This document shows positions 4,463 to 58,814 of a stretch of DNA of 63,519 nucleotides, piece by piece. The notes beneath the pieces are model-generated. The model had not been told where the DNA came from. It ran no database searches and saw nothing but the letters and a program-made list of their open reading frames with translations. Position 1 is the first letter of the stretch; every line of letters begins with the position of its first letter. Both the position numbers and the translations under genes were made by a program. The DNA is from Psammoneis japonica (lineage: Eukaryota): assembly GCA_008632985.1 (NCBI GenBank), contig QPGO01000079.1, positions 310,001 to 373,519 of the forward strand, read 5' to 3'.

Positions 4463-4482
4463 AACAGTGATGTGTTTCCCGC

Positions 4483-10349: not shown

Positions 10350-12200
10350 ATATCCTTTCAAGGCACTGCAACCCAAAGCAATCAGCGTGTTGTCCCAAGC
10401 ACTTGTCAGATGATCTTCTCCTGCCTGACAGGTGATGCTGCCGTAGCTAGCTAGTGGCACAACTGCCGGCACAGTGGTGTGGTGCCACTGTAAGATGTTG
10501 AAGAAATGACAACTGCACTGGCAAGTCTGCCAGCAGCTCCAGCACTGATCACCCTTTGGAGGGGCCTTTCTTTGCTCCTGCTGTGCCCACCACTTGTCAG
10601 ACAAGAAGAAAGCTGGCAAGCTGAGGTGCACAGGCACACGCAACATGGCATGCAACAACAAGAAGTGAAGCCAGTTCATGAGTGCCACTGGCTGGTGGGT
10701 TGTGCTGGCCCACCACAGGGTTTGGCCAAGAAGCCAAAAAGGGGTTGTTTGGCCCCTTGAGACGTGTGCATTTCTCCCCGCCCATGACCAACGCCACCTC
10801 TCTGTCTGCTCTTAGAAAGAAGTTGCAAAAAGAAACATCTCAATCACCTTGGGAAGTTGCAATGCCAGATCCTGTCTCTCCAGTGCAAAGTTGAGCAGGG
10901 TGAGCAGTTTTCTTCACAGCAAAAGCAATGGAAATCATCTGTTGACACTTGAATCATCTCCAACCTTCTCCTCTTTGGCTCTCTCTTTCACCACAAACAC
11001 ACCACATCTCATCATTGTGGCAGGGTGCACATGATGGCAAGATTGGCTGGAGTGACAACAGTGACAAAGCCACTTTGATGGAGTGAGTCAGTTCTTGTTG
11101 TGAGGTGTTTGAATTGAAGAGCTGTTTTGGCGTGTGCTTGGTGTGACTCTGCAAGTGGTGTCATCTTCTGTGGGCTGCTGGTTTTGTCTTTCCATTGTTC
11201 TTGAGTGCAGGCAACACTGTCCTCTCTGAACATCTCTCCACAGAGCTGTGCAGTGTGTGCCCAAGCTGACCTTGTGAAATGCACCACACAAACCAAGCAA
11301 AATTTTCCATTCCCAGCAGCATGAGTGTCAAGTGCCATTGTTTGCACCACATGGCCAGCCCAATGTCATTTGTCCAGACTCAGTGTGTTGTCACTTTCTC
11401 TGGAGTCAATGGCAGATGTCCCTTGCCACTGTGTCCACATGTTGTGCTGTGGTCAACCCAAGCTTGCAACGTCACTGCCCAGGTGCAACTCTGAAGCAGC
11501 TCTCTCCTCCAATGCCATTCTGTCAAAAAGTTGCTGATCCATCAGCAGCAGGTGTTGCAGCTCTGTTGCAAACTCACAGTTGCCAATGACAGTGCTGTTG
11601 TTGTGTTTGCTCAATCTGATCAAAGAAAAGCCTGGTGTGAACCTCATTCTTTACATTGAAGTGCTCACATCAGGAGGGGAAGCATCAATCCAATCTTTGC
11701 AAAGCAATCACTTCCTCGCAAATCATGGGGCCCCACACTCTCTTCCTCAAGAAATCATTCAGCCATCTTGACATCAGTTTTGGTCCTTGACACTGGCAGA
11801 TGTTTGCTTGGCAAGGTGCAAAGAGGGCCAATGCCATTCACTGTGACTCAGTTGTTTGGACTCAGCTCCTCCCACTGCAAAAACAGAGTGTGCCACCAGA
11901 GACCCACAACCATCTCTTCAGAGGGATTTTTTTCAGAGAGAATCTGTCTCTTTCATCTCAACCAATGGAGCTGTCTCCTCAACAGACCTTTCAATTTGCC
12001 CTGACATGCATCCTGGTGTGTGGACTCTGGCTGAACTCTTTGGTGTGTAACACATTGTTTGTGGACTCTCAGAACTCTTGGGGCAGACCTCCAATCATCT
12101 TGGAGCATTGCAAATTGGCCTTCTTTGATCCCAATGATGGGATGCACTGTCTGAAAACAGGTCTTTCATCACTTGATGGGACTTCCCGACTGAAAGATGC
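10350..12200. other. TpG/CpA-rich hypermutated block 1
   Basis: Near absence of TpA and strong CpG loss; ORFs rich in C/H/Q and almost free of Tyr. Boundaries approximate. Confidence 0.85.
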
Positions 12201-12375
12201 AAGACTGTTATGCAAGAAGACCACCGAGATCATGACTGCCCCCGAATTGACTCGTGCCATTATTGTCCGTGACCCAGAAGAACGATTTTTATTAGCCCAT
12301 CTGGACAAGGGCTTCAACGAGGGGTTCCTGAAAAAAGAAGTCTATTACAGATGGCACACTTACGATCACTCGTAA
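12070..12375 (+). pseudogene. Relic of a carbohydrate sulfotransferase-like gene
   Basis: WGRPPIILEHCKLAFF and EIMTAPELTRAIIVRDPEERFLLAHLDKG resemble the PIV.E.YKL.FF and FVRDP.ERFLSA(Y/F)LDK (3'-PAPS-binding) segments of this family; the intervening 5'-PAPS segment is missing. Confidence 0.6.
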
Positions 12376-12441
12376 AAGTTGAGACTTCTGTGTGTCAAAA
12401 ATGCCGACTCTACGTTTACCAGTCAAATTATGATTATTATG

Positions 12442-14142
12442 TCATGACGAGTCTGGAGGCATGGTTTTGAAATTGAGAAGTTCTGTCTCCATCGCCGTGA
12501 CACTTCTCGGTATTGAGCTCTGTGAACCTTCTTTGGATTCTTTTCGTACAAGCGTTGACCTTGGCCGTACAAGATCAAAGGAAGCGTTGGGACTCGCTTC
12601 CGACGATCCAATATTGCCACCCATTGACAAGTCCGGTTTTGGATGTTGCCGCATTCGACCGTCGCGACCCCAAATGTCTTGTGATCTGCCAAACTCGGCA
12701 AAGGTTGCATTCTCTACGGTACCTCGTCGAGCATTGTCACTTGCGTGTGGTCGACCAAAGGATTTGATGGATTGAATCTTGGCTCCCGGTTGGACTCGAG
12801 CCTTTTTTCCCGCAGGCAAGTTGGTGCTGTCCTTTTTTGGAACTTCCCACGCGTGATTCCACGTGACGGATCGGTGTTTGCGTGCCCCTGATATGGGATT
12901 CACGTCACCGCCGGAAGGCGCGGAGTGTGATTTGTTTTGAAGCACTTCATTGAGTCGAAGCGCCGACGATCGTGCTTTTCGTAAACCGGCATCTTCGTTT
13001 GGAGTAGTGGATAGATTGGCTGACAATTTCAAGACACTGGAAAATTTTGACAAGGGTGGTGGTGGCGCTTCTGCTTCCTTCAGTGTCGTGTCTTCCGTTT
13101 CAGTGTCGTTGTCCTCTTTTGCTGCTTGTGGCGTTGTCGAGTGTTCAACCAACTGAACGGCAAGCATGCGAGCTTCCTTTACCAGAGAGTCCAACAATGG
13201 GTCAGTATTCAGTCGAACGTCCACTTTTGTAAGGCCAAATGATTTTGATTTACTGCCACCGTTTCTAACGAGGTTACCTGTCGAAATAGTACGAGGTCGC
13301 GGAGTTGACATAAGGATATTAACGTACAGTTTGCCCAACATATAGCCAAGAAACATGCAATACACACCTGAAATTGTTCCGGCAGCCCCAAAAGTGACAG
13401 TTTCATCGATGCGATCCTTCAATGACACACGTATTACCGCTTCAAACAAGAGTGGCAGCACAACATTATACTCTGTCGGTTCTAACCGAGCACTGTTTGG
13501 TAAGGGAAGCGTCGAAAAGGACGTTGACACTCCCTTGATTTCAAATCTGAGAGAAAGCATATTGAGGACCTGGGATCGGACCGTCTTGTTCCCAGTCGAC
13601 AAGGAACGTTTTAGCAAAAGCACGGTCCATTCTTTTGTCCTTGAATCTAGTAGCGATTTCAATGCGTCACTAATGTTTTGTGCAATGGTACCCGGTGCGT
13701 TGACGAGAGTTGTCCGAGTCCAAGAAACGGGTTTTGCGAGATTTTTGGCTGCAGACTTCTGCTCTATTGATATGGATCCCTGCGGTAAGACCGACGCTTG
13801 CATTGGAGGTATGGGCGGTTCGTCAGGAGCTTGTTGTTTGCTGCCTGTTTCGCCCAAGCGAGGGAGAGGATCGCTGTTGCCGCTGCCGTTGTCGGCTGCG
13901 CCAGCGTTGATGTCGAGGGACGGTATGGTACATAAAACATCGTCATCACTTGTGGCAGTCAAAGATATACTCTGAGCAAACTCTTCTGCTGTAGCTTGTT
14001 GTCTGCTTTTCCCCGCAGTAGCAACACCAAGATCCGCGCCTAGCAACGACGCAAACTGGTCAACCACTGATTCCTGAAGAGCGGCGTCGCTGTCCCCAAA
14101 TTTTTGCTTCCCAACTGAAATTTCCCCAGATTTCATCTTCAT
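12442..14142 (-). CDS. Hypothetical protein (~536 aa after splicing)
   Basis: Long ORF of normal composition with a probable in-frame 90-nt intron 13278-13367 (CAG|GTGTGT...TCGACAG|G). No recognised domain. Confidence 0.7.
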   Translation of the reverse strand: MKMKSGEISVGKQKFGDSDAALQESVVDQFASLLGADLGVATAGKSRQQATAEEFAQSISLTATSDDDVLCTIPSLDINAGAADNGSGNSDPLPRLGETGSKQQAPDEPPIPPMQASVLPQGSISIEQKSAAKNLAKPVSWTRTTLVNAPGTIAQNISDALKSLLDSRTKEWTVLLLKRSLSTGNKTVRSQVLNMLSLRFEIKGVSTSFSTLPLPNSARLEPTEYNVVLPLLFEAVIRVSLKDRIDETVTFGAAGTISGVYCMFLGYMLGKLYVNILMSTPRPRTISTGNLVRNGGSKSKSFGLTKVDVRLNTDPLLDSLVKEARMLAVQLVEHSTTPQAAKEDNDTETEDTTLKEAEAPPPPLSKFSSVLKLSANLSTTPNEDAGLRKARSSALRLNEVLQNKSHSAPSGGDVNPISGARKHRSVTWNHAWEVPKKDSTNLPAGKKARVQPGAKIQSIKSFGRPHASDNARRGTVENATFAEFGRSQDIWGRDGRMRQHPKPDLSMGGNIGSSEASPNASFDLVRPRSTLVRKESKEGSQSSIPRSVTAMETELLNFKTMPPDSS

Positions 14143-14399
14143 GCGGTTCTAAAACATAAAAGAAGACTCCTCTTTGCTCAATTGGCAGCAGTGACGATGC
14201 CTGAGCATGAACTGCGAATCTACTCTGAACTCAACTGCGCACCAACCCCGGGAGAAGCGAAGTCCATGCCGTCTTGTGCAGTCTTGTGTGCTTCATTTTT
14301 TCGTCCAGCCGGTGTCGCGTGTCCGTCCGGCGCTGCTGCTCAATAAATGTGTGACCGTGCGCTACGTCAGTCTTGCGTCAATTCATCCCGCCCACTAAT

Positions 14400-16541
14400 G
14401 CGATGCATGAAGCACACGCCAACGCGTTGTTGGCCCCATTTGGTCGTGCGAAATTCCATCCCGACTGTCGACGATGCACACGCATGGCAATTCTTAGCTA
14501 TCCATGCAAAGGACAAGGACAACAGCGCTGGGGCAAAGCTGCAGTGGCCCTTGGCCACGTCCAAAGTGCTTGCTCGTTTTTGTTCTTTCTCCGGCTGGAG
14601 CAAGGTTGCAAATCCTTGCCTCTTGACATCGTGGCAACCACGCGGGGCAATGCCTCTCCCTGCTTGGGATGTCTGGGGGGGGGGGGGGGCAAAGAGGGCT
14701 GAGACACTGTTTTTGTGATGCCCCTGGTCAGAGCCACTCTCTTTTTGGGCTCTGGGCAGAGTGGCTGAACTCTGATGCAGCACACGCCCATCAATTTTTC
14801 TGTGCCAAGCACCAAGGAGGAGGCAGCTGCAGAAAGAAGAGTGTTCTGGCACCCAACAAAAAAAAGGCACTCTCATTGGAGGCTGTGTTTTGCAAAGCCT
14901 GCTTTGTTGCTCAGTTTGTTGAGACATTGTGTTGACAAAGTCTGTTGTGTTTTTGCTGCCAACCACTGGAAGCAGAGTGTTGATTGGTGCCATCAACAGC
15001 TAGACCAACATGTCAAACAATCAGCACCCAGCAGCTTGTGAACAAGGTTGGTTGCCTGCACATCTGCACAAGTGCAAGTTGCTCTGACAACAAGCAGGGG
15101 CTTGCTTTGGCTTTGTGCTTGATGCCCACATGCCAGAAAAGATCTCATCAGAGTGCTGTGGGTGTTTGAACATTCAGAGCTCATGAGACAGAGCTGGTGC
15201 TTGAGAAAAGTCCAACAGAAACTGCCTCATCAATGGGGCTGTTGTGGCTTGAAGCAGCGGGCATGCCCAAAGCTTGCAATTTTTTGTGTGAATGAGCATG
15301 ACATTCCTCACTCTCCTTGCTTTGATTCCTGAAGGGCAAAGTGGGAGAACAGCTGCAGCTGCAATTTGGAGAGTTGCTTCTCACTCCAAGCTGCCCACCC
15401 AGCTGCTTTGAGAATTGGGTGCTTTTTGTGCTGGCCAGCCCACTCTCATCAAAAGAGTGCATTGCAGTGTTCCTTAGAACTGGACCAAATGCTGTCTTGT
15501 TTTGTGTCAAGGCAGCACAAAATGCACAAGAAAAATCTGCATTTGGTTTTTGCATTTAAACCCAAAGTCAATGTGGAAAGACCATCTTTGCCTCAGGCTT
15601 TCCCCATCTTCTGCACAGCAGTGCACCTGCATGCAGGAACTTTGACAAAAGAGCATCAAGTCAATTGAGCACATTTTTTTGCAAGTGACACTCAGCTTTG
15701 GTCAGAAAGCTGAGCAAGATCTTGCAATGCACAGCATGCTGCTGGCCATCAGCAAGGGAAGTTGGTGACATTGTCTCATGGGGTGCCCAAAGCAGCAGCA
15801 CAACTCCTTTTCTCATTGTTCATGGTCCACAAGGAGGCCAATCAACGCTGACATCTGTCTGGAACAACAGAGAGAATCTTGAGAGCAGCAGTCTTGTCAG
15901 TGCTTGACCCTGGCACCAACCTTGCATCACATTGTCGCAGCCACAAAAAGACTCTTCAACACAGCTGCAAGGTGACAGACTGCACGCACAGAGGGCAAAT
16001 GCTGGAAAGCATCCCCACCAATGCAGAGAGACAATTTTGAAGGGCAAAAGGGAAGCAAAAAGAGGCATCATGGCTCCAGTTGTCCTCTCTGCAAAAAACT
16101 TGTGTGTTGCACAAAAAGTTGCTCTGACCAAGCAGCAGTGCACCATTGTCAAAATGCCAAAACAACAATGTTGCACCTGCATCTTGACACAACTCCAGAG
16201 AGAACCAGAAATTGCCTGCACAACCACAGCAGAAAAATGGCTCCACCAGAGAACTGCTGCTGGAGCCAAGAGAGGAGATGTGTTGCAACAGTTTGTTCAC
16301 TGCAGCAGAGGGCTGATCAACACAAGCCATGTCATCAGACATGCCCATGCTGATGTTGTCTTCAAAAGGAGCAAGCAAAGGGAAAACAGCTGAAGAAACC
16401 TCTGACATGATGCCATTGAGTTGAGACACAAGAGAAGACATCTTTTCATTGTTGGGATCTTCGCATCATTGTCAGAACAGGAAGAACCACATTTCTCTTA
16501 GCCAAAGAGTCGCCGGACATTTTTTTCCAAACTGTTGTTGC

Positions 16542-16572
<31 letters not shown>

Positions 16573-19500
16573 GCTTCTTTCTTCATTAGCAACATGAGTG
16601 TTGCCTCCTTCTTTGTCAACAACATGCAACCCAGATGCAACACAACTCCGCTCAATGTGCCTTGCAAGAAGGATGTGAGGACAAGAAGAGCAAATGACTC
16701 TGCACCACTGGCAGCAATGCATTGTCAGGAAAGGAGAATGGGAGAAGCACAACAGTTGTCAGCAAAGTGAATGATGAACAGAACAGTGACATCATTGTCA
16801 ATTTTAGGGTGACAAACATGCTTCTGGCATGCAGGGGTGATGCGTTGGTTGCATGGAGTCGTGGCCAATGGAAGTCATGCAACAAGAAAAGATTGAACCA
16901 CAAAATGGTGTCCTGTCTGGCAACGTAAATCAAGTTGCAAAGTGAAAGTGAGGCTGCAAAATGGCTGTGTCTTGAGATGTTTTTTGACGACTGCAAAACA
17001 GTTGATGTCTCTTCTGAAGTTGAAGAGATCATGGTGCACAAACCACAAATGCAAGCAAACACAAAAACTCAGTTTCTCCCAAAACAAGAGTTTTCTGCAA
17101 ACAAAAACAAGAATGGCTTGAAACATTTGGGGTGCCAGGAACAAAAGTTTTGGCAGATTCCAAAAGTTTNNNNNNNNNNNNNNNNNNNNNNNNNNNNNNN
17201 NNNNNNNNNNNNNNNNNNNNNNNNNNNNNNNNNNNNNNNNNNNNNNNNNNNNNNNNNNNNNNNNNNNNNNNNNNNNNNNNNNNNNNNNNNNNNNNNNNNN
17301 NNNNNNNNNNNNNNNNNNNNNNNNNNNNNNNNNNNNNNNNNNNNNNNNNNNNNNNNNNNNNNNNNNNNNNNNNNNNNNNNNNNNNNNNNNNNNNNNAAAT
17401 GTTTGGTTGCTGCAAAGCACTGAGGCAGTGTTGGCTGCTCAAGTTGAGGTGTGTGCAAAGCATGAAATGGCCATTGCACTCCAAAAAATGAGGGTTTGGG
17501 TCCATGTGTGCTTTTGATGGACTGACCACCACTTGTTGTGTGTGGATTTCACAGAGCTGGCTCACAGAACTGCTGATGGCTGCCATGCCAACATCATTTT
17601 GTGGAGCTGCCATGTGCAGCCTGTTGTGAAGCACAAAAACACAAGCCAGTTCTTGAGTTGATGGATGGCTGCATTGTGGCACAAGTTGCAAAGTCAGAAT
17701 GACCCAGCAGATGAAGAATGAGGTGATGGTGGTGGGAGCTCCAAACAACAAATGGCCTCCAAACCTCAGCTGCTGGCACATGGAATTGGTTGGATCTTCC
17801 AATCAAAAAGGGGAGTTTTCCAGCCAAGAGCAGCAGATGGAGCACATGTCATTTGTGTCGTGTGTGTGCATCAAGCACAGCTCACACATTGAATGCAGAG
17901 TGGCGCCTCAGGGGCTGCCTTTTTGTCATCTCAAGTCACATCACATGTCTTTGACTGGCAACCATCCGATGTGACAATTTTTGAATTTTCTCAAACAAAG
18001 CAAAGCAAAGCCTGCTCTTCACTCATCTCATGCATGTCCTGGAGTCATCCTTGAAAATGTGGATAAAAGGGGGAAATGGCTTGCTTCCAGCTTGTTCCCT
18101 TGGAGCTGTGAGATGGTGCAGTGCTCTGCGGTCAATGCACCAAGATCCATCTCTTCATCACAGCGCCAGTTGTTCTCCACAATCAAGCCACAGATCTTTC
18201 ACCACCCACAACAGACTTGAAGGACAGGAGCTGTCTTTGCCAACAACAGAAAATGAGCCACCAGCAGGGACAAAAGGCCAAGAGGGGGCAAAGAAATGGA
18301 GAGACAGGCTCTTTTGGAAGATGTGCAGCAGCTCTCACACTTGGGCTCACTCTTCAGGTGTGCATCAGTCTCACTGGATTTGGCACCTTTGGTGGCCATT
18401 GTTGTGACACACTTGCAGCATTGTTGCTTGATGTGCAACAATGAGCAAGTGGCACTCAGCCGTGAAACAAAGACCAGTTCACAAAAAGTGGCAAAGGTCA
18501 CATTTTTCTGTAAATTCATTTTTGCATTGCCACAACACCACACTCTCCCATGCTGTCATTCATTGCAACACACAAGGAAGGCAATCTGTTTGATGTGCAA
18601 GGCCGACCCCCATCTGAGCCATCTTTTTGGCCACTCCAGTTGGAAACACCTCAGATGTTTGGAAGAACTGAGTTGCTTCTGAAGCATGCCAAGTGGTGCT
18701 GCTCACATTGAGCAGCATGAGCCTGACTCAACAGCAACAGAGCTGCAAGATTGTTCAGGCTGACACTGCCTCCAGTCTTCATCCCTGAGTTGAGGCATGC
18801 ACCAGTGCAGCAGAGCACACAATGAAATGGGCTGCAGTGTGGTGTGCAAGATGTGCAAGTGTGCTTGCATCCCACAGCGGGCACTTTCACAAAGTGGCCA
18901 TCCCTTGCAGCCAGTGCCAAGTCAAACCCAAGCAGCAGCAAGTGATGGCACTCAAAGCAAAAAACAGAGTGCCCACCACAAGCACTGTGACAATGAAGTC
19001 AAGCAAGCACTCCAACCATGACAATGCAACCAACACAAGAATTTTGCAGATTTGAAAGCTGCCCAGAGGAGCAAAAAACTTCATCTTTCAGGCAGGCATG
19101 GCCTTGCTCCTTTGTCATGAGTTTTCACCTCCCCAGTGCCCCTTGTGGTGGCCCCTTTCACAGTGCTGCAGAGCTGTCAGTTGCTCATCATGTCCATGTT
19201 CACCTGGCCAGTGGACATGCCAAGCCAGCTGGTGACATTTGTGGAAGATGGTCAAATTGAATCTCATCTCCTGACCTTCTGCTGCAGCTGCACACTGTGG
19301 AAGCTGCCGATTGCAACTTCTTTGGATGTCAAATCATGGCCATTGTGTTCCAATCATCACCATTCCTGCCATGGTGCTGAGCAACATCCACCTGGGTGCA
19401 ATTGTTGGTCTTGCAACTTTCAGCCACTGCATGGCAAGCAAAAGTGCAGAAGATGGTGGTTCTGACCGCATGCATTGATGGCAAATGCATGCCAAGCCAT

Positions 19501-19600
19501 GGCAACTTCCCAAAATTTGACTGGCAGGACAGGCGTTGCTGCATTTTGAATGAAGACAAACGCATTTGGTGCATGGAAGACTTGTGAATTCTGCAATGAT
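14400..19600. other. Hypermutated block 2 (unidentified relics; assembly gap 17170-17396)
   Basis: TpA nearly absent apart from YTAR, CpG rare. No confident protein family recognised. Confidence 0.85.
16533..16573. repeat. (TTG/CAA)n microsatellite
   Basis: About 13 units with one interruption. Confidence 0.9.
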
Positions 19601-19621
19601 TGCTGAGAAACTCAAAGTATT

Positions 19622-20188: not shown

Positions 20189-20197
20189 CGTGAATCG

Positions 20198-22670: not shown

Positions 22671-22703
<33 letters not shown>

Positions 22704-48900: not shown

Positions 48901-50583
48901 CTCAACAAGGGTAGTTCCTTCGTTGGGTGTGGCAATCTGAATCAGCTGAGCTATATCATCATGATTCTCAACGTAGTGCCGGGAATCAAGACCCCCTTTG
49001 CTGTGTGCAACAATGTTGAGTTTGTCCACACCCCAGCGTCTCTTTGCGTCAGCGATTGCTAATTTAAGGTCATGAGCATTGTTTGCAATAGAATCATAAC
49101 CTCCCAGGGAGATATGTCCGTCAAAGGGAATGCCGAGACTGGTCAAATGATTCGCCCATGTGCGCCCGATCCACATACTTGCACCTGCTCTATATCCGTG
49201 AACCAGCAGGACGGGACGAGGTGCCTCATCAATTGTTAGTTCAACCTTGTCTACTTGGATGCACTGGACCAGCCCAGCACCGGTGACTTCGATACGAACT
49301 CTGTTCATTTCTGGCTCCAGGGTTCCATCTTTTCCTGGGTCATCTGGAAAGTTGACTACCTCGAGTGGAATACTGAATCTGTTCATTTTCCATTTCCCAG
49401 GGTCGCCGGTGAGAACGCCAACTTCATCATCATTGAAGTAGACATGAAAGCGCATTCCATTTGATGGATATGGCCTGGTCGGATTGTACTCGATGTCGTA
49501 GGCCGCGATACGTAGGACTGCCACCTCAGGAATGAGACCATTTTCCAACAGTTTTGTAATATCTCCATAGTAAGGGACTACTGAGTCAATTTCCAATGGG
49601 ATGTTTGGACCATATGCACAGTTGTCCTCGAGCCTGGCTCCTGAGTACTGATCAAAGGCCAGCGCATCGATTCTAGGAATTCTGGTACTAATGAACCAAG
49701 GAAGAACGGTCTTTTCCATATCCACAATCTGAATCATGTTCTGGAATCCGCCGTATCCCCCTGGGGCATACATTAGCTGACTACGAGGCCGAAGGTCACC
49801 ACTCCCTGTTAAGAAATGTGGAGGCCTATACTCGTTTCCTTGAGACTGCTGCGGAATGAGAACACCGTTGACCGTGTCGACTATATGGTGGTCAAAAAAT
49901 GAATATGAAACACCCTTTAAGCTGTATTGATGCAACACATCATTTTCATCAAAGCCGAGGCTAAGGCCAGCCCAGACACGTGGACAGCAAATTGGAGGTC
50001 GGTAACGATCTCCAATTATCGAGGTCACTCCGTTTGTGGTATCAACATTTAAGATATACCACACCCCTCCTATGTCGGTCTTCACAATGTAGATTCTACC
50101 GGACTTATCGATTGCCAGTGTTCCGCTGTAGTCTGATGATCTCTGGTACGTCTTGAAGACTCGACCGGTTCTGTCATCAATGAAGACCAATTCCGAAATA
50201 CCAAAAGTACAAGAAATTCTGCCACAGTATGGATGGCTGACCAGTCCAACTAAATGGCCACGGTAGCTGTCGTAGGCTAGGGAATGGAAACGCCTGCGAC
50301 CACTGTATTATGTGGTCCCATCGTTGGTAATCTCGTGGATGTAGCTCACAATATTGCTTTCTCCGGTTACCTCATCCACCTTGTAGAGTGTGGCTCGGGA
50401 CGTGTCGTCTGTTCCCACAACGTACAGAGTACTGGCCGCTTCGCCGACCAACAGAGCCAACAGAGCGAGGACCTTTCCAATTGCTGATCAGACAAGAAGC
50501 AAGAAAGCGGTGAGCAGGATGGGAGGGGTTAAAAGAAACAAGTTTGCTCTCTGTGGTTCACCCTTACCTCCAGAAAACTTCAT
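45971..50583 (-). pseudogene. Large secreted multidomain alpha/beta-hydrolase (lipase/PGAP1-like) gene with two in-frame stops and one frameshift
   Basis: Spliced leader MKFSG|AIGKVLALLALLVGEAAS; VLLVHGY, AHSKGG elbow, GDGVVP, AAHGG; LRDDGVSPDEVADDGIYTG; two D..DG(Y/L)YD.L...F(D/N)G..I..N..DGP(Y/F) repeats; PS-rich stalk; C-terminal DIK...AVILGSSDLDVSDIDTSTI domain. Stops TAA 50308-50310 and TAG 48742-48744, frameshift near 47478, introns ~50484-50567 and ~48578-48681. Confidence 0.75.
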
Positions 50584-50850
50584 CTTCTATCCGATAAAGA
50601 TGGCAGGTATGATAATGTAACGATGATGTATTGAAAAAGGTATCATTGCTTGAATTGTGGGATGAGTTCGCATCAAAGATACGAGTTCGCATTGAGACAA
50701 CGAACTGTGGCTACAGTACAGTAGGGCCCTACCGGTACGTACCGTATTGCCGAGTTAGGATCCACGAGATAGAGTGGATGGGTGCGCCCGCCCCTCCGAA
50801 GCTAAGAGTGGGGTGCGCCATCCAAGGCTGTCCAAGGTGCGAGCAAATCG

Positions 50851-53800
50851 TGGCATGTGTCCGGTCACGTAGGTAGCTCCGAGTTTATGAAAAAAGAAGG
50901 GGCAAAGGAGGAGGAGGAGGAGGAGCGAGAGAGGGAGAGATGCATTCACAGTGTTCAGTGTGTGCAATGCGTTCAACGTGCGTGCACGACGCACAGACGA
51001 CCAGCGCTTCCGACACAGTCGCAGCTCCCCACTTTAGAGAGCAAACACTCTAAAGAACAGCAACGTGCCATGATCTGTCTGAGTCATTGCTCACGGAAAA
51101 TTTGCACGCCCACTGATGACGCCACCATTGAGATGCAACCGCACACCAAGCCAAAACTCCATCACTTTTTGCAGCCGGCTCCACCCCATTTTGTCCATTT
51201 CCTCTCCAGACCCGACTGCATGCGGAAAGTTCCAGTGTCCAATTTCCCACATCAACAAAGAACATCAAAAGACTCAAGTCATTGAGAGCATTGGCATGGA
51301 AAGGCAGCTGCAAGCCCTTGCAGTCAAAAACATCTGTGCTGAAAAATGGCGGGCAAAATGAAAATGTGAGTGGAACCACGCACACAACAACAACCCACTG
51401 AGGCCACATGTCACAGCGCACTCACTGTGTCAGCTTCCAGAGGTGGCACTGAGATGCCCCACCCAGTTTTAAGGCCCCAAGTGCTGCCAGTGGTTCGTGG
51501 CATCCGAGCATCCAAGAGGAGGTGAGGAGGCCGTCTGGGCAAGCCTTCGCCTCTCCATTTTGTCCGGCACAAAGCCTGGACTCGTTGGCTCACTGCCAAG
51601 ATCTCCCTGCATGATGTGGACAAAATTGTGTCTTGGACAATGAAGATTTGATTGCAGAGCCAGAAGAAAGGCTCGTCACAGACCAGACACCTGCACACAT
51701 GAACGAGACACACAAAAAAGGCTCGTGAGGTGCGCGGCTTTCGTCAAAACGACTCTAAAACTCAATCAATCACAATGGACTCACAGGATTGTCTTTTTTG
51801 GAGCATGTGAAATCTGTCTGACAAACGTCATTGTTGCAAGTGTCTCCGAGGCTCCATCATGTTGTTTTGTTTCCACGGCATGCATTTTTGAGAAGTTGAC
51901 ATTCTAAAAAATGACGTGCCATTGTTGTGCACTGACCAAGCCCCCAAGAAGGACATCAAGCAAGTCACAAATCCACCCCAATGTAAATGACAGGTGCGCC
52001 AAAGGATGCAGAGTGGGGTGCAGCACAAGGCTTCCAAATGGATGCACTGTGGTGGTGCAAATGCCGTGAAAAAGTTGCCAACTTTGCCAGAGCTTTTGGT
52101 CAACCATGCGAGACAATCAATCGACCTTGCAAGCTGTGACAAAATGCAAAACAACAATCTTCAGCAAGCATTCAAATGGCATAAAATGAGAAAACATGGA
52201 AAGAACTCATCACGGCAATGTTGTCGACCACTCAGATGTTGCCCGCACCGTGCCTCATTTGAGTTGCGAGTCAAGGCACGCAACCGTTTGCAGCATGTGC
52301 AGCAACCAAAGCACCCCAGGAGACCAAACCAATGCATCAACCTCTTTGTGACAATGACAGAAAGAGATCACCCATGAAAAATGCTTCTGAACCCACGATG
52401 TTTGCCATGCTGAGATGCATCAAAGTGCAGTGTGCATGGCCGTTTCTTGTGGCGCGGCATGCCAAATCGGGAGCATTTGAGTGGAATGAAGAAAATGAAG
52501 AGGATTCCCTCTTTTGTGTCATTGCACAACTTGTGCCAGATTGGACTGTTCATTTCTGCTTGTCATCACAGAAATGGAATTTTGTCATTTGTGGGATTCT
52601 GCACAAGTTCCAGCACATTTCCCACACAGTTTGTGAAGAGCCACACCTGCACAGCTGGATGATTGCCTGTTCTGGCACATGTCTGGTCATGCAGGTGGCT
52701 CCAAGTTTGTGGAAAAAAGAAGAGGCAAATGAGGAGGAGGAGCCAGAGAGGGAGAGATGCATTTGCAGTGTTCAGTGTGTGCACAATGCGTTCAATGTGC
52801 AATGTGCATGCACGATGCACAGACAGCCAGGGCTTCTGATGCAGTCGCAGCTCTCTGCTCTAGAGAGCAAACACTCCAAAGAACAGCAACATGCCATGAT
52901 CCATCCAAATGCATTGTCTGCTGCTTCATTGCTCACGAAAAATTTACATGCCCACTGATGACACCACCGCTGAGATGCAACCACACGTCAAGCCAAAACT
53001 CCATCACTTTTTGCAGAGCCGGCTCTACCTCATTTCATCCATTTTGTCTCTAGACCCAACTGGATGCAGAAAGTTCCAGCATCTAATTTCCCACATCAAC
53101 AAAGAACATCAAAAGACTCAAGTCATGGAGAGCATTGGTGTGGAAAGGCAACTGTGAGCCCTTGCAGTCAAAAACATCCATGCTGAAAAATGACAGGCAA
53201 AATGAAAATGTGAGTGGAACCACACACACACAACAAACCATCCACTGAGGCCATGTGTCACAGTGTGCTTCCTGCGACAGCTTCCAGAGGCAGCTCTGAG
53301 ACGCCCCACCCAGTTTTAAGGCCCCAAGTGCCGCCAGCAGTTTGTGGCATCAGAGCATCCAAGAGGAGGCAAGGAGGCTGTCAGGGCAAGCCTCCACCTC
53401 TCCATTTTATCCGGTGCAAAGCCTGGACTTGTGGGCACACTGCCAAGATCTCCCCATGTAACGTGGATAAAATTCTGTCTCAGACAATGAAGCAAATCGA
53501 TTGCAGAGCCAGAAGAAAGGCTTGTCACAGACCAGACACCTGCATGCATGAACGAGACACACAAAAAATGGCTTGTGAGGCACACGACTTTCGTCAAAAC
53601 GACTCTAAAACTCAGTCAATCACAGTGCACTCAAAAGATTGTCTTCTTTGGAGCATGTGAAGTCTGTCTGACAAATGCCACTGTTGCAAGCATCTCCAAG
53701 GCTCCATCACATCATTTTGTTTCCATGGCGTGCACTTTTGAGAAATTGACATTCCAAAAAATGACATGCCATCGTTGTGCGCTGACCAAGCCCCCAAGAA

Positions 53801-54489
53801 GGACATCAAGCAAGTCACAAATCCACAATGTAGATGACAGGTGCACCAAGGGATGCAGAGTGGGGTGAAGCACAAGGCTTCCAAATGGATGCACTGTGGT
53901 GGTGCAAATGCCGTGACAAAGTTGCCAATGTTGCTGAAGCTGCAATCGACCGTACAAGATGATCAATCAACCTTGCAAGCTGTGACAAAATGCAACAACA
54001 ATCTTTGGCAATTGTTCAAATGGCACAAAACAAGAAAATGTAGAAAGAACTTGCCACGGCAAGTTGTCAACCATTCAGATGTCACCCGCATGGCACCGCA
54101 TTTGAGTTGTGAGTCAAGGCACGCAACCGTTTGCAGCATGTGCAGCAACCAAAGCACCCCAGGAGACCAAAACCCATGCATCAACCTCTTTGTGACAATG
54201 ACAGAAAGAGATCACCCATGAAAAATGCACCTGCCCCACGATGTTTGCCATGCCCAGATGCATCAAAGTGCAATGTGCATGGCCGTTTCTCATGGCGCAG
54301 CATGCCAAATCGGGAGCATTTGAGTGGAATGAAGGAAATGAAGAGGATTCCCACTTGTGCCAGATTGGACAGCTCATTTCTGCTTGTCATTGCAGAAATG
54401 GAATTGTGCTGTCACAGGATTCTACACAAGTTCCAGTGCATTTGCTGCGCAGTTTGTGAAAAGCCACCTGTGCAGCTGGACGATTGCCC
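50851..54489. repeat. Tandem duplication, two diverged copies of a ~1.82 kb unit
   Basis: 50861-50889 aligns with 52683-52711 (offset 1822); colinearity continues to CAGCTGGAYGATTGCC at ~52667 and ~54488. Confidence 0.9.
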
Positions 54490-54599
54490 AAATTGTTGTG
54501 GACAAAGTTCTGTGGGCCGCACGTTGCATTGCAGTCACCGATGACCAGAGACTGCACAAACTGAATGATGGAAATGTCCAGCAATGTTGGCGTGACCAG

Positions 54600-56600
54600 A
54601 GGGTTGATCATTGTTGACAAATCATTTGCTTGCGCGCACTCAGAGGCACAGTTTGACAACAAAGTTTGAAGCCATTCACCACGTCATTTTGTTGTGGGGG
54701 AAAGAGTGGTTGTGGGTGAGTCAACCACAACAGTTGCATCATTGTTTGTGTCTTTGCTCTAAGTTTTTTGCCATGAGCAGTGTGAAGAGGTCCAGCTGAA
54801 ACTGGTGAGCAGCTGACAAAAAGTTGACAACCACAGTTGCTGGTGCAGCAGCACCTCCTTGCAAAATGCAGTGCCGGAGCAGGATGTCGTCAGATTTCAG
54901 CACCTTTTTGCAACATGGACTGGGGTTTTTTCCCTGTGTGTTGCAACCTCAAGTGCTGGTCGACTTCTTGGTGGCAGGTTTGGCCACGCTGTTGCTGACA
55001 AGAGCACTGCATCTCAGCTGGCACCTGTTGTCATGCTGCACTGTGCTTCTGTGCATGCTCCAATTTTGCAGCTGTGTGGGTGCCAGATCTGCTGTCAGTT
55101 TCCACTCAAACATTGAAAAGCTGTGAAACCAGAAACAGCACAAAGAGAAGCTGCAAAAGGGGGGGTGGCAGCACAAAGCTGTTTTCAAGGAGAGCAGGAA
55201 GCAGAGTAAATCAAAGAAACTGAAGCCAGCAAAAATGGAGAGGTCAAGAGCATTGGCTCAGATTTGAAGGCTTGAAAAGTCACTGGGTTCTACAATGAGT
55301 GTGTCTGTTGAAGTCTTTCTTGGTTGAGAGCTGTTTTTGGTCTCAGAGGTCATGAGAAAATGACTGCAACTGCACTGTGCTCCATTTCTGACAGATGCAC
55401 ATGATGTTTCAGATTTCATTCAACAGGTCATCTGAGGTGAACAAGCATGCATTGCAGACACATGCACCAGTGGAGAGACTGGTGTGATTTTAAAGTGACT
55501 CTTCTTTGCAAAGGGAGCAAGCACCACAACATTCCCTCAATTTTGGGTGTGGAATTGGAGGGAGGCAAAGGAGTCATCTTGGGTGAGAACAGCAATTGTT
55601 TGAAAAGGTGGAGCTGCGCGCATCTCCGGCAACATTGGCGCAGCACTTTGTGTCCTCAACACTGACAGCCAGAAGCGGTGGATTGGTCAACCAAGGTGCC
55701 ACTTTAGCTGGGCAATCACACATGATGGTGTCCCATTCGTGGAATTGTGCAGGACCAGCATTTGGAAAACATCCCTGCCAAGCAGAAGCTCATGGCATGC
55801 TGTGTTGATTTTTGTTTCGCGTGTCATTTGTGGAATTTTGCAGGGTCAAATCAACAAACAGAGTTGACAAAGCTTTGGTGTTTTGCTTGGATTGCTTGAC
55901 CCTCACACCCCCCACCCCAACTCTTGCAGAAGATTCCAACAATGACTGAGATTTCCACTTGCAACATCACAGCGCCAACACTCTTGCTTCCGACTGGGGG
56001 GGCGCAGTTGACAAAATTCTCCACATTCACATCACCCCCATCCAGTCTCACAATTCAATGGGTGAAAGGCCGCCAAGAAAGACATGCTTCTGTCCACACT
56101 CTTCCCTTTCAGGCTTGAGTGAAAATCTGGGTGGATGAGTCAGCCGGTGCTTGCCAACGTCATTGTCCAGGGGATGCTGTGCAAGTGATGCCATTTCCCA
56201 ATTGCCGCACACATTTGTCAGTGGTGCAAGAAGGCACAGTGACTTTGACTTGCAATGCGGTGCTTGTCAAATGGCACTCCAAGCAACATGTCAAAGCAGC
56301 CAAGCTTGTTCACAATCTTCTCCCAGCAAACAAGATCCCTCATCACTCAGCATGATCTGGTCCAACCACATCATTGTTTGACCTGCAAACACCCAATGAA
56401 AGACAGAGATCATGCACTGAGGTGCCCAGACAACAAAGAATGGCAAAAAAAGTTTTTGCAAGGTGGCACAAAAGCCACATGTTGTGGGGTTACAAAAAAA
56501 TGTTCAAATGCAAATTTGAACACATCCAATGACAAACTCACATGGAGCGCATGTCTGAACAAAAATGTCTTTTGGAGTCGCCACTTTCCAACATTCTAAA
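54600..56600 (+). mobile_element. Second degenerate LINE (Ambal-like) 3' portion
   Basis: CAGPAFGKHPCQAEAHGMLC (RNase H-like GP..G...YRAE.YGML), KLVHNLLPANK, CLTCKHPMKDRDHALRCP...WQKKFL (CCHC). Confidence 0.6.
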
Positions 56601-57861
56601 CATGCCATGACTCGTGATTCTCCACATGATGATTTCTCCCAAAAACCATCACCATTTCACATCATCCCCATCCAGTCTCACAATTCTTTTCCCTTGCAGG
56701 CTTGAGTGAATGTCTGAGCAGATGAGTCAGTTGGTGCTTGCCAAGGTCATTGTCCAAGGCATGCTGTGCAAGTGATGCCATTTCCCAATTGCCGCACACA
56801 CTTGTCAATGGAAGAAGGCACAGTGACTTTGAGTTGCAAGAAACAGATCTGGCATGCAGCTGCTGCTCTCCAGCTGCTGGAGTGCCAGTCAGTGGTGCCC
56901 TGATGTTGCAGAGCTGATGGACTGAAAAGCTCATGCAGTGCTTGTCAAACAGCACTCCAAGCAACATGTCAATTGCAGTCAAGCTTGTTCACAATCTTCT
57001 CCCTGCAAACAAGATCACTCATTGGCGTGATTTGGTCCAACCACATCCTCATTGTTTGCCCTGAAAATGCCCAATGGAAGACAGAGATCACACACTGAGG
57101 TGCCGGGACAACGAAGCATGGCAAAGAAAGTTTTTGCAAGGTGGCACAAAAGCCGCGAGTTGCAGGGTTACAAAAATGTTCAAATGCCAATTTGAGCACA
57201 TCCAATGACAAATTCACATGGAATGCATGTCTGAACAAAAATGTCTTTTGGAGTCACCACCATCCAACCTTCCAAACATGCCACAACTCATGATTCTTCA
57301 CATGATGATTTCTCCCAAAAACCATCACCATTTCACATCGTCCCCATCCAGTCTCACAATTCTTTTCCCTTGCAGGCTTGAGTGAATGTCTGGGCATGAG
57401 TCAGTCAGTGCTTGCCAAGGTCATTGTCCAAGGCATGCTGTGCAAGTGATGCACCGTTTCCCAATTGCCGCACACATTTGTCAGCGGAACAAGGCACAGT
57501 GACTTTGAGTTGCAAGAGAAACAGATCTGGCATGCAGCTGCCATTCTCCAGCTGCTGGAGTGCATTGTTGAGCGCTGTCAGTGGTGCCCCAATGTTGCAG
57601 AACTGATTGACTGAAAAGCTCATGCAGTGCTTGTCAAACAGCACTCCAAGCAACCTGTCAATTGCGGTCAAGCTTGTTCACAAGCTTTTCCCCCTGCAAA
57701 CAAGATCACTCATCGGCATGATTTGGTCCAACCACATCCTCATTGCTTGCCCTGAAAATGCCCAATGGAAGACAGAGATCACACACTGAGGTGCCCGGAC
57801 AATGAAGCATGGCAAAGAAAGTTTTTGCAAGGTGGCACAAAAGCCACGAGTTGTGGGGTTG
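56026..57861 (+). repeat. Three tandem copies (third partial) of a ~630-680 bp LINE-derived unit
   Basis: TTCACATC..CCCCATCCAGTCTCACAATTC recurs at ~56026, ~56656 and ~57332, each followed by colinear sequence. Confidence 0.88.
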
Positions 57862-58814
57862 CATTGGTGAGAAGGAATGAAATTGATGTGCTTTGTGTGT
57901 GAGTGGTGGCTGCTGTGTGCCTTGCCAAGAGCCCTGCATGGTTGACCTGCTTCCTCCATGTGAGTGCAGAGCGGCAAAATGTGCTCTTGGGTCTTCTGGG
58001 AAAAGCCTCAGTTGGGGGGTCATTTGCTGCTTTTTCAGCTTGAATTTGGCCAAACAGCTTGTGACTTGCACAATTTTTCCACTTCTCCATGGTGAAAGGC
58101 ATCAGGCCACAGTCTGTGTTGGAGGTGGCCTGTCCACCCACTGTCCTTTGTTTTGTGCTCGTTCTTGTTGTGTGCGTCAAGCCCAAATGTCACACACGCA
58201 CAAACACACACACACATGCCACCAAATGTTTGTGTGGACCATGGGCGCTCCTGCTGCATTTTAGAGAAACATTTGTGATTGCCAGCATTGTCATGGTGCC
58301 TCGGTCATGGCATCATCAGGCCCAGGTGTGAGCATTTTTTGCACTAAAAAACAAACACCACAGACAACCTCGTTAGGGTGCAGAGGCGCAGCTCCAGGAC
58401 AAGCTCGGACTCGGGGTCCCCAGAAAAAAAAATCATTCCAAGATGATGATGTTGTGAGTTTGAGCTGATGGAACCATTCCCTTTGATGCCGTTCCTCCTC
58501 AGTTTGTGCCGAAAATGTTTTACTTCTCGCGCTTGTGACTTGTGACAAACTACGGTGCACAACATGATGGGTCGACTTTGAAAGAGAATCATGAATCTTT
58601 GGAATCTTTGAATTTTATCGAATATTCAGGAATATTCGACAAAGATTCAGGGCACGCGTCACTTTTTTGTTCTTTGCTCGTTCGTACTGAAACGTGTAGA
58701 AATCCACGTAATCTGGCGCGGGTCATACTTCCGCTCTTCAACTTGCGCTTTTGACTCGTTTTCGATCGAAAAAATCAACACAAAAACCGAACGATTCATC
58801 ATCGGCATGAGACA

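Follow-up and report, generated by a model that had tools for sequence, protein, structure and literature searches.

The sequence analyzed here, which we refer to as the window, is a 63,519 bp stretch of the pennate diatom Psammoneis japonica (GCA_008632985.1, contig QPGO01000079.1, positions 310,001-373,519 of the forward strand). It is ordinary nuclear DNA, with some N gaps, in which normal genes lie between blocks that have lost nearly all of their TpA and most of their CpG. A scan of dinucleotides in sliding 1-kb windows and a two-state HMM of TA density, run over all 63,519 bp, delimit exactly seven such blocks, which together make up 32,272 bp (o/e, observed/expected):

10492-12208, no strand: block 1, 3 TA (o/e 0.027), 8 CG (o/e 0.079), TG/CA o/e 1.8
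14500-19617, no strand: block 2, 10 TA (o/e 0.030), 32 CG (o/e 0.114), with an assembly gap at 17170-17396 inside it
21224-23537, no strand: block 3, 4 TA (o/e 0.027), 26 CG (o/e 0.187)
25096-26597, no strand: block 4, 1 TA (o/e 0.013), 29 CG (o/e 0.255), GC 0.55
29114-30210, no strand: block 5, 2 TA (o/e 0.033), 41 CG (o/e 0.535)
32898-45787, no strand: block 6, the largest, 45 TA (o/e 0.052), 223 CG (o/e 0.298)
50887-58520, no strand: block 7, 32 TA (o/e 0.063), 145 CG (o/e 0.328)

The initial annotation of this DNA had described seven sharply bounded blocks spanning 10350-58540 and covering about half of the window, with almost no TpA, few CpG, an excess of TG and CA, and normal genes between them; the scan and the HMM agree, and place the outer limits at 10492 and 58520. 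TpA o/e is 0.013-0.063 per block, whereas the eight segments between and beside the blocks have 0.47-0.67; CpG o/e is 0.079-0.535 compared with 0.88-1.15, and TG and CA o/e in the blocks are 1.45-2.04. With expected counts scaled from the flanks, the blocks hold 96 TA where 1,299 are expected (1,203 missing, or 92.6% gone) and 504 CG where 1,803 are expected, and the combined deficit of 2,502 is matched by a TG plus CA surplus of 2,537. Loss of TA affects all contexts, is confined to the domains and reaches 99% in places. The two products are strand-symmetric (3,574 TG and 3,647 CA). GC content is 0.48-0.55 per block and 0.45-0.49 outside, with overall values of 0.487 for blocks and 0.476 for flanks, that is, no change. 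AA (2,790 seen, 2,723 expected) and TT (2,448 seen, 2,382 expected) are not depleted. The borders are sharp to about 100-300 bp and lie a few hundred bp from adjacent ORFs. Among 80 unrelated metagenome loci (~0.93 Mb) there was no 1-kb window with TpA o/e under 0.20, and such blocks were not found in the roughly 7 of these loci that are diatom-like.

The blocks contain intergenic stretches, repeats, a gene fragment and a pseudogene, and they hold 161 ORFs of at least 90 aa. A Pfam scan of 122 of these gave no match at the cut-off, and thus no reverse transcriptase, integrase, transposase or viral domain. The initial annotation had seen the blocks as covering transposable element relics and duplications; the repeats and duplications are there, and the relics found no backing among the 122 scanned ORFs. 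Two ORFs it had placed at 33335-34186 and 39404-40396 and called free of tyrosine do have 0 Tyr by our count (33338-34189, minus strand, 284 aa; 39383-40393, plus strand, 337 aa). In first-order Markov simulations of the blocks, ORFs of at least 337 aa arose in 10/100 and of at least 284 aa in 38/100, so their length is a chance outcome of the loss of TAA and TAG.

The following features in and beside blocks 6 and 7 allow the direction of change to be determined or the copies of a repeat to be compared. Block 6 holds the pseudogene, the altered copy of the 5' region of an SPX gene and the multi-copy element, and block 7 holds the tandem duplications:

38982-39970, plus strand: pseudogene of an uncharacterised protein family (tblastn; two frames, one stop)
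42434-43154, plus strand: upstream part of the SPX segmental duplication, with its partner at 57862-58726, mostly within block 7
43156-44324, no strand: core of a multi-copy element that sits as an insertion in the duplicated segment (word depth and repeats)
44325-44872, plus strand: hypermutated copy of the SPX promoter-proximal region and first exon, 80% identical to 58724-59267
50851-52667 and 52673-54488, plus strand: two tandem copies of a 1.8-kb repeat, whose left edge coincides with the block edge
56099-57863, plus strand: tandem array of ~680-bp units inside block 7, 89% identity
58521-59267, plus strand: SPX promoter, first exon and intron, the unmutated partner (ATG at 58815, donor at ~58902)

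The SPX duplication provides the clearest view, with one copy in a block and one outside. The intact gene is expressed and its first exon is spliced (a contig from run X2 joins 58899 to 59297). Block 7 ends ~295 bp upstream of its start codon, and one block border falls within a segmental duplication. The 548-bp half at 58724-59267 is untouched by mutation. In the block copy, where the pseudo-exon begins at 44416, the 21 TA of the intact copy have become 8 TG and 9 CA with 1 kept, which means that 17 of the 20 changed sites went to TG or CA, and the 25 CG have become 8 TG and 6 CA (14/25) with 4 kept. These changes include Tyr>His, Tyr>Cys and a splice donor altered from GTAAGT to GCAAGT. In the upstream part of the duplication (42434-43154 against 57862-58726), identity is 73-76%, rising to 86.5% in purine/pyrimidine space, and transitions make up 33/50 and 44/62 of the differences.

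The multi-copy element carries 100-bp direct repeats (43465-43564 and 44202-44301, 89% identical), and summed word depth over 42669-44669 is 4,362-20,272, compared with 58-68 on the flanks. Comparison of 43767-44520 with read contigs lists 14 differences, and in 10 of them a TA of the reads is CA or TG in the window. The element still has a CpG o/e of 0.57-0.74 despite its TA loss. Measured by word depth, most of the family, or a large part of it, retains TA; the expectation that TpA would be lower in the block than in intact copies of the same family is thus borne out, since the other copies keep TA where the window copy has TG or CA.

The third comparison is with the protein relatives of the pseudogene, of which there are 12 with E<=0.001 (best 1.1e-22, 53% identity). 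Three arginine positions are invariant among the 11 aligned relatives, and at these the pseudogene has TGT (Cys), TGG (Trp) and CAA (Gln); the four tyrosines of the displayed relatives are CAC (His), TGT and TGT (Cys), and TTC (Phe). Based on these three independent polarisations, from the SPX exon copy, the multi-copy element and the pseudogene, the block pattern is mutational and arose in place, and reflects neither foreign origin nor selection.

The tandem repeats are consistent with this. The 1.8-kb copies, over which summed word depth is 217-851, have 230 differences, 195 of them transitions; transitions occur at a rate of 17.9% within YpR steps and 4.8% elsewhere. Among aligned dinucleotides the most frequent difference is CA opposite TG (43 sites), with orientation 21:22, and the 43 sites form 22 runs where 22.5 are expected, so there are no strand-coordinated tracts. 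In the ~680-bp array 56 of 72 differences are transitions, led by CA/CG (12) and CA/TG (10). As the tandem copies differ mainly by CA and TG at the same site, each copy was mutated separately after duplication.

The same data bear on whether the pattern could have come from sequencing, base calling at modified bases, polishing or assembly, which we regard as extremely improbable. There are N gaps in the assembly and small indel differences between window and read contigs (8 gaps in 2.76 kb), and the comparison reads are runs that all derive from a single sample in a single study, which may be the assembly's own, so their support is not independent. The block sequence, whose absence from independent raw reads the initial annotation had named as a refutation, is recovered in contigs built from reads: a 4,694-bp contig (word depth 64) reproduces 40001-42760 except for 2 letters. 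A systematic miscall would also leave both tandem copies with one and the same letter, yet 43 sites here read CA in one and TG in the other, and the changes are consistent with the coding logic of three unrelated genes or families.

The sequence differences resolve into two transition processes that have come close to completion in place, TpA>TpG/CpA (A:T>G:C) and CpG>TpG/CpA (G:C>A:T), both of which hit both strands, with each site struck independently. Applied to the flanks, the two fitted processes reproduce how the 12 other dinucleotides shift (r 0.83) and leave GC constant. A second, TpA-specific A:T>G:C process acting in the same domains as CpG decay had been proposed from composition, and the polarised comparisons agree with it. 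A and T bases inside TA were changed by transition in 17/41 cases and elsewhere in 22/286, and with GC constant, this contrast also disposes of context-free GC-biased conversion, which the initial annotation had named, together with CpG decay, as grounds for refutation. Loss of TpA outpaces loss of CpG and extends wider at the edges. In block 5 the TpA is gone and the CpG just half gone, the CG-based HMM does not call it CG-poor, and at several block edges the TA-poor segments overshoot the CG-poor ones by 100-860 bp.

The TpA process follows a context rule. The 96 residual TA comprise 57 YTAR, 35 mixed and 4 RTAY, compared with 230, 635 and 388 in the flanks (chi2 96, p 1e-21). In 5'-TAY the A mutates about 3x faster than it does in 5'-TAR, with the two strands behaving independently, in the order TAT>TAC>TAG>TAA; survival of TA by the base 3' of A is 0.05 for T, 0.16 for C, 0.39 for G and 0.59 for A. 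A model with independent strands fits (chi2 14.7, 16 cells, 4 parameters); its baseline, drawn mostly from coding DNA of the flanks, may not match what the blocks were before mutation. In mixed contexts 9 of 11 polarised outcomes obey the TAY rule. Read from sequence, A>G at TAY and T>C at 5'-RTA leave an identical signature, which does not tell which base is attacked. Context has a modest effect on CG, with per-strand survival of 0.42 for TCG, 0.46 for CCG, 0.52 for ACG and 0.76 for GCG. CpG is therefore lost fastest at TCG and slowest at GCG, and hypermutation at TCG is likewise found in basidiomycetes.

Decay of 5-methylcytosine in methylated transposons of vertebrates and plants shares with the blocks the CpG>TpG/CpA change, on both strands and confined to domains. 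However, it has one arm only and does not remove TpA, while in the blocks 1,203 TA are missing too and TpA loss precedes, and is faster and wider than, CpG loss, so CpG decay is ruled out as the whole signature. Very-short-patch repair, which counters 5mC deamination and is held to deplete CTAG in E. coli, has the side effect of converting a TA-containing word to CA and TG words, as in the blocks, but the E. coli effect is mild, genome-wide and limited to one pentamer, whereas the blocks lose TA in every context, up to 99%, within domains. CpG decay combined with the replication and repair biases of late-replicating, poorly repaired heterochromatin (polymerase errors, Pol eta, mismatch repair, GC-biased conversion) would require no dedicated enzyme. 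The changes did pile up as many independent hits and transitions dominate everywhere, but we consider this very unlikely, given the near-absolute specificity for TA (92.6% gone, with AA, TT and GC content unchanged), a transition rate of merely 4.8% outside YpR steps, and borders that are sharp within 100-300 bp. The Pol eta-type (WA>WG) repair put forward in the initial annotation is a poor fit in particular, as AA and TT, at 2,790 and 2,448 against expectations of 2,723 and 2,382, were not hit.

Both ADAR hyperediting and AID/APOBEC deamination of retroelement cDNA produce clustered transitions in mobile DNA, the blocks are partly repetitive, and many RNA viruses jointly suppress CpG and UpA. 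The blocks could in principle descend from edited RNA (ADAR-like A>I) or from deaminated cDNA that entered by retrotransposition, or be foreign DNA, viral in origin, in which CpG and UpA are avoided. Such editing is strand-biased per copy, occurs before integration and is limited to retroelements, whereas the blocks are symmetric (TG 3,574 and CA 3,647; orientation 21:22), divergence of the copies happened in situ, fragments of host genes including an exon copy were hit, one border lies inside a segmental duplication, and the 122 scanned ORFs have no reverse transcriptase or viral domain. APOBEC, moreover, changes C only, while A:T pairs are changed here as well. We reject an ADAR-type fossil and give this whole group of origins almost no chance.

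Fungal RIP (Neurospora and other ascomycetes; RID/DIM-2) resembles the blocks in its transition-only dinucleotide hypermutation of sharply bounded, repeat-holding stretches whose coding capacity is destroyed. However, RIP converts CpA to TpA and raises TpA and AT content, whereas in the blocks TpA is erased, there is an A:T>G:C arm and GC is unchanged. The published RIP thresholds are at least 0.89 for TpA/ApT and at most 1.03 for the ratio (CpA+TpG)/(ApC+GpT) (PMC7884421). The blocks have 96/1712 = 0.056 and 7221/3676 = 1.96, beyond both thresholds on the wrong side, and they show no AT enrichment (GC 0.487 in blocks and 0.476 in flanks); the signature is, as first described, the inverse of fungal RIP. 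A related process triggered by homology is a different matter, in which duplicates would be recognized, for example before meiosis, and both copies mutated, with DNMT4 supplying a C>T arm and a partner an A>G arm. Some diatoms have RID-related DNMT4 genes, whose function is given as unknown (PMC9998398). The tandem and segmental duplications and multi-copy elements in blocks, the start of block 7 within 36 bp of a repeat-unit edge, and the fact that most hypermutation postdates duplication would all suit it. On the other hand, several observations speak against targeting by homology: the high-depth family keeps its TA in most or a large share of its depth, the 548-bp partner is unmutated, strand-coordinated tracts are lacking (22 runs, 22.5 expected), both RIP indices are inverted, and no further block paralogues were found within the window, even when compared in purine/pyrimidine space. 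We therefore think a RIP-like process unlikely. The initial view that the loss is targeted to repeats may draw on the repeats and duplications in the blocks, but sits less well with the untouched 58724-59267, the family copies with TA, and the baseline word depth over much of the examined block length.

We believe that the pattern is probably best read as a chromatin-domain-targeted A:T>G:C activity at TpA combined with deamination of 5mC. The blocks would be silenced, probably 5mC-methylated chromatin domains, and targeting would be by domain or position, not by sequence homology. Four observations favor domains over homology: the multi-copy family keeps TA in most or a large share of its depth, the 548-bp partner is untouched, the TA-poor segments overshoot the CG-poor ones, and 30211-32897, a 2.7-kb ORF-free stretch between two blocks, is unmutated. 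The CpG arm would be deamination of 5-methylcytosine, and the TpA arm an activity that recognizes the TpA step. The net effect would be an irreversible wrecking of the contents of the domain, in which every Tyr codon disappears along with many Arg codons and the GTA splice donors.

The base attacked could be the T of TpA, through a TET/JBP-type oxidase or another thymine modifier giving a T derivative that pairs with G, so that T>C occurs at 5'-RTA alongside 5mC decay. The signatures are the same, T and 5mC are both 5-methylpyrimidines before a purine, and base J and dinoflagellate 5-hydroxymethyluracil occur preferentially at TpA. However, our literature search found no support for it, and oxidised thymines are mostly excised, with repair giving a mixed spectrum, while here 17 of 20 changed TA became TG or CA. 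We consider attack on thymine improbable.

For the TpA arm of a domain-targeted activity, our leading guess is a CDA-fold (TadA/ADAT2-like) deaminase that would convert adenine to inosine in DNA and be recruited to silent chromatin, and the same enzyme might also drive the CpG arm. The natural tRNA target of TadA and ADAT2 is an A after U (U33-A34, in the anticodon loop), and TadA and early adenine base editors prefer TAC, with C 3' of the target A. The blocks have T before the changed A at the level of signature (17/41 and 22/286), and the TadA-like candidate raised earlier gains some support from the TAY preference but sits less well with TAT ranking above TAC. To our knowledge no ADAT2 or TadA DNA deaminase has a role in shaping a genome. 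Among the genes of the window, none is a deaminase of the expected kind, with the HxE...PCxxC motif, additional to the tRNA enzymes and bearing a part that targets chromatin. Reported precedents are amphioxus ADAT2/3 (BjADAT2/3), which deaminates A as well as C (at TCG) in DNA, and trypanosome ADAT2/3, which acts on C in DNA; the adenine context reported for amphioxus ADAT2 when it works in E. coli is GAA and not TA (PMC10354150). One CDA-fold enzyme acting on both A and C in DNA would parallel the two arms of the blocks, where the order of CG survival fits a TCG preference with a modest effect; those reported activities, however, were demonstrated in vitro or inside E. coli, with single-stranded or hairpin DNA as the substrate.

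A more specific proposal, which we hold as possible but somewhat short of an even chance, is that diatoms, or this lineage, have a chromatin-targeted enzyme that deaminates adenine (or modifies thymine) at TpA in double-stranded genomic DNA as an arm of genome defence; within that reading, a single TadA/ADAT2-like deaminase might also convert (5m)CpG. Our literature search found no description of targeted loss of both TA and CG. If true, silenced DNA would be driven irreversibly to a TG/CA-only state with constant GC, by a natural system of DNA adenine editing that would be the first to shape a eukaryotic genome, with no known counterpart.

The surviving CpGs carry one further feature. In two disjoint subsets of block CpGs, spacing peaks near 180, 350, 550 and 740 bp, and the same analysis of the genes gave no such peaks. 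In other algae, DNMT5 is reported to methylate linkers (PMC9998398). The ~180-bp spacing suggests nucleosome-phased methylation in the blocks.

The seven blocks described here were called with a 1-kb sliding dinucleotide scan and a two-state HMM on TA density, and together they make up 32,272 of the 63,519 bp of the window. The blocks, numbered left to right, and the N runs are as follows:

10492-12208, block 1
14500-19617, block 2
17170-17396, N run of 227 bp inside block 2
21224-23537, block 3
25096-26597, block 4
29114-30210, block 5
32898-45787, block 6
50887-58520, block 7
62284-62454, N run of 171 bp

The observed/expected ratio (o/e) of TpA is 0.013-0.063 in the blocks versus 0.47-0.67 in the intervening segments, and that of CpG is 0.079-0.535 versus 0.88-1.15. 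TG and CA have o/e of 1.45-2.04 in the blocks and are equal between strands (3,574 TG and 3,647 CA), and GC content is alike in the blocks (0.487) and the flanks (0.476). Scaled to the flanks, we found 96 TA where 1,299 were expected and 504 CG where 1,803 were expected, and the combined deficit of 2,502 is close to the TG plus CA surplus of 2,537. These counts confirm the initial annotation, which described sharply bounded blocks over about half of the window, poor in TpA and CpG and rich in TG and CA, with normal genes. Across 80 unrelated metagenome loci (~0.93 Mb), those fetched via the ammonium transporter alignment, the lowest 1-kb TpA o/e was 0.20 and no TpA-poor block of this type was found, which says little about how widespread the blocks are because only about seven of these loci are diatom-like, most of them short.

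The block pattern is the result of mutation that arose in place, and three independent polarisations, against an SPX paralogue, a multi-copy element and a pseudogene, agree on this. All three give TA loss, as expected from the second, A:T>G:C process that had been proposed for these domains of CpG decay.

At 44325-44872, block 6 carries a duplicate of the first SPX exon together with the promoter-proximal region, and the intact counterpart is at 58724-59267. Among the 21 TA of the intact copy, the block copy has TG at 8, CA at 9 and a retained TA at 1, and among its 25 CG, TG at 8, CA at 6 and a retained CG at 4. Transitions at A/T affected 17/41 positions inside TA versus 22/286 elsewhere, and transitions at C/G affected 16/50 inside CG versus 13/153 elsewhere. 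The SPX peptide MKFCKNLQRVVDISDPEWAPYWTNYKMLK reads ...GASDPEWVLHWTNCKMLK in the block copy, and the splice donor GTAAGT has become GCAAGT. Double changes between CA and TG (6/78) are about as frequent as one background transition, which would be expected if a new TA or CG in the domain is soon resolved. A contig from X2, one of the two sequencing runs (X1 and X2) compared with the window, connects 58899 directly to 59297, so the first exon is spliced. This contig defines, within 58771-60000, an intron of ~397 bp behind the first exon (ATG at 58815), and it hints at spliced sequence derived from RNA in X2, though the run is not on record as RNA.

The multi-copy element (~42669-44669) has a summed word depth of 4,362-20,272 versus 58-68 on the flanks, a value that is not a copy number and shows only that read contigs are far more numerous over 42669-44669 and 50673-54674 than over the flanks. 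Direct repeats of 100 bp, spaced 737 bp, lie in the element, which occurs in an X2 contig as well and could be LTR-like or non-autonomous. The element had no Pfam or Rfam match, and since Rfam gave 0 matches over the whole window, it does not correspond to any known RNA gene. Of the 14 listed differences (43767-44520), 10 have CA or TG in the window against TA in the reads, with TA making up between 30 and 97% of the X1 depth at each of them, and the lone X2 contig has TA at all nine of the 10 sites that it covers. Other copies of the family keep TA, the opposite of the equal TpA levels that the initial annotation had named as evidence against its proposal. The window's own copy, although stripped of TA, retains a CpG o/e of 0.57-0.74, and TpA loss thus runs ahead of CpG loss.

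The pseudogene is covered by the first ~140 codons of the ORF at 39383-40393, for which 12 relatives were found (the best with E 1.1e-22 and 53% identity), all from environmental assemblies only, in a family that is absent from Pfam and has the conserved core SLFGAAILSF...TPILWRLAQA...VVLST. By tblastn the family is placed on 38982-39970 (+) in two frames and with a stop. Three Arg common to 11/11 aligned relatives are TGT, TGG and CAA in the pseudogene, and four Tyr of the displayed relatives are CAC, TGT, TGT and TTC. Some 6 kb upstream, at 33036-33176 (+), the N-terminus of one relative is weakly matched, so insertions may have split this gene.

Between the two tandem 1.8-kb copies of block 7 there are 230 differences, 195 of them transitions, and the transition rate is 17.9% at YpR steps and 4.8% elsewhere. 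The top aligned dinucleotide difference is CA versus TG (43 sites), as would result when an ancestral TA or CG resolves independently in each copy. Which copy bears CA is random (21 versus 22, in 22 runs where 22.5 are expected), and there are no strand-coordinated tracts in this comparison. An array of ~680-bp units and the 100-bp direct repeats show the same pattern.

The loss depends on sequence context. Among the 96 surviving TA, 57 are YTAR, 35 mixed and 4 RTAY, compared with 230, 635 and 388 in the flanks, which are mostly coding DNA and served as the context baseline (chi2 96, p 1e-21). The 16 contexts are fitted (chi2 14.7, 4 parameters) by a model in which the strands are hit independently and the base 3' of A determines the rate. 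TA survival by this base is 0.05 for T, 0.16 for C, 0.39 for G and 0.59 for A, giving a hit order of TAT > TAC > TAG > TAA, with TAY hit about three times faster than TAR. This rule predicts that RTAR becomes RCAR and YTAY becomes YTGY, and 9/11 polarised mixed-context events comply (one-sided binomial 0.03), 6/7 from the SPX pair and 3/4 from the element against reads. CpG survives at 0.42 where T precedes its C, 0.46 for C, 0.52 for A and 0.76 for G. When the two fitted processes, and no others, are run on the flanks, the way in which the 12 remaining dinucleotides shift is recovered (r 0.83, with AT down and GC up) and GC content is unaltered.

Assembly or sequencing artefacts were also considered. 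One X1 read contig (4,694 bp, word depth 64) matches 40001-42760 except for 2 letters, so the pattern is present in reads, but these are not the independent raw reads that the initial annotation had asked for, because the two runs are one sample from one study and perhaps the assembly's own. Neither the CA versus TG contrasts of the tandem copies nor the coding logic seen in three unrelated genes depends on sequencing chemistry. Most of the block length has no X2 contig over it, which is not taken as a sign of silence. Within 40001-60000, read contigs and window differ at ~159 places (transitions are 130 of the 150 counted for X1) and there are small indels (8 gaps in 2.76 kb), and therefore the assembly carries another haplotype or small errors.

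These data show two context-specific transition processes that act on both strands through many independent hits and are confined to domains, with TpA lost faster than CpG. The domains would be silent, methylated chromatin. In Phaeodactylum tricornutum, H3K9me2, H3K9me3 and H3K27me3 are each present on ~39-43% of TEs, and TEs with such marks are mostly untranscribed (PMC4504042). The CpG arm (CpG to TpG/CpA) is probably 5mC deamination, and the TpA arm (TpA to TpG/CpA) would need an activity that reads the TpA step. Context-free GC-biased conversion, which the initial annotation had set against its own proposal, is rejected because GC, AA and TT are unchanged in the blocks, and its Pol eta-type candidate (WA>WG) is dropped because AA is spared. 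Our leading guess for the TpA arm is adenine deamination by a TadA/ADAT2-like enzyme. Such enzymes can deaminate both A and C of DNA, C preferably at TCG, but the A context given in PMC10354150 is GAA, which differs from the TpA of the blocks. Attack on the T of TpA, by oxidation and mispairing, would leave the same signature as attack on adenine, and the two cannot be told apart by sequence.

Block borders are sharp to 100-300 bp, at a distance of a few hundred bp from the adjacent ORFs, with the right end of block 7 ~295 bp upstream of the SPX start codon. At several edges, TA-poor segments overreach CG-poor ones by 100-860 bp, and in block 5 TA is lost and CG only half lost. TA and CG are at normal levels in the genes between blocks, so the pattern is not explained by selection acting on a region-wide process. 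Not all non-coding DNA is affected, since 30211-32897 (2.7 kb, between blocks 5 and 6) has normal TpA and CpG with no ORF >166 aa and no Pfam match. It is a multi-exon gene that went unrecognised or else non-coding DNA that is protected.

Homology does not seem to trigger the mutation. The left edge of block 7 is within 36 bp of a repeat edge and duplications lie in the blocks, which agrees with the repeat targeting originally proposed, but the multi-copy family keeps TA in most or a large share of word depth, and the 548-bp partner at 58724-59267 is untouched even though the block 7 border falls inside that segmental duplication. There are no further paralogues of the blocks in the window, where a self-comparison in purine/pyrimidine space gave the same 8 pairs as blastn. 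The spacing of surviving CpGs in the blocks (10492-58520) has peaks at ~180, 350, 550 and 740 bp, with a minimum at 260-320 bp. The peaks recur in two disjoint block subsets, at a level that is no more than suggestive (z up to ~4), and are missing from genes. The 96 residual TA are too few to assess periodicity. CpG decay may be phased by nucleosomes, and the peaks would fit nucleosome-phased methylation as reported for DNMT5 in other algae (PMC9998398).

Long ORFs within the blocks were rejected as genes and are a chance by-product of stop-codon loss, except for the pseudogene's ~140 codons. Pfam found nothing above cut-off in 11 long block ORFs, nor in the 122 of 161 block ORFs (≥90 aa) that were scanned, the other 39 being outside the scan, and ORF 33338-34189 had no relative among 1,474 candidates. 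Of the TE relics and duplications first assigned to the blocks, the duplications and repeats are present, but a TE identity is not borne out, with TE domains in 0 of the 122 scanned ORFs.

The process resembles RIP as a targeted, saturating, transition-only wrecking of unwanted DNA. It differs in that the blocks have no AT enrichment and that the two RIP indices point the opposite way (0.056 and 1.96 versus thresholds of ≥0.89 and ≤1.03, as quoted in PMC7884421), consistent with the contrast drawn earlier with fungal RIP, which makes TpA. RID-related DNMT4 enzymes with no known function occur in diatoms, and the sections of PMC9998398 available to us describe no RIP-like process there. In a full-text literature search we found no description of TpA loss or TpA-erasing hypermutation in repeats or heterochromatin of diatoms or other organisms, and PMC7884421 and PMC4504042 have no bearing on TpA loss. 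To our knowledge, detailed accounts of hypermutation targeted at unwanted DNA come from fungi only, and concern C>T only. The process in the blocks is of this known kind, with an A:T>G:C arm at TpA that has no known counterpart, and as far as our searches reach, a saturating, domain-limited process of this type is undescribed in any organism.

Diatom genomes would gain a second, irreversible silencing layer alongside methylation, and orphan RID-like DNMT4 genes or an unknown deaminase might thereby gain a role. DNA adenine deaminase activity has so far come mainly from laboratory evolution of TadA, and the TpA arm may point to a natural enzyme. The blocks also mislead gene finders with long false ORFs, because TAA and TAG are absent, make repeats hard to detect by similarity and distort analyses based on composition. 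Scanning for the signature is easy (TpA o/e <0.1 over 1 kb), so the question is testable in all published diatom genomes.

The ORFs between the blocks have unremarkable domains, namely rhomboid, BMT5-like methyltransferase, ammonium transporter, SPX and CorA. The top named relatives of the ammonium transporter are from pennate diatoms at 54-59% identity (Epithemia and a Bacillariaceae MAG), which bears out a diatom origin of the window. At 908-4462 (+) there is an uninterrupted ORF of 1,184 aa whose sole match is DUF1280 (E 1.3e-10), and its neighbour at 7859-9919 (minus strand, 686 aa) contains PT repeats.
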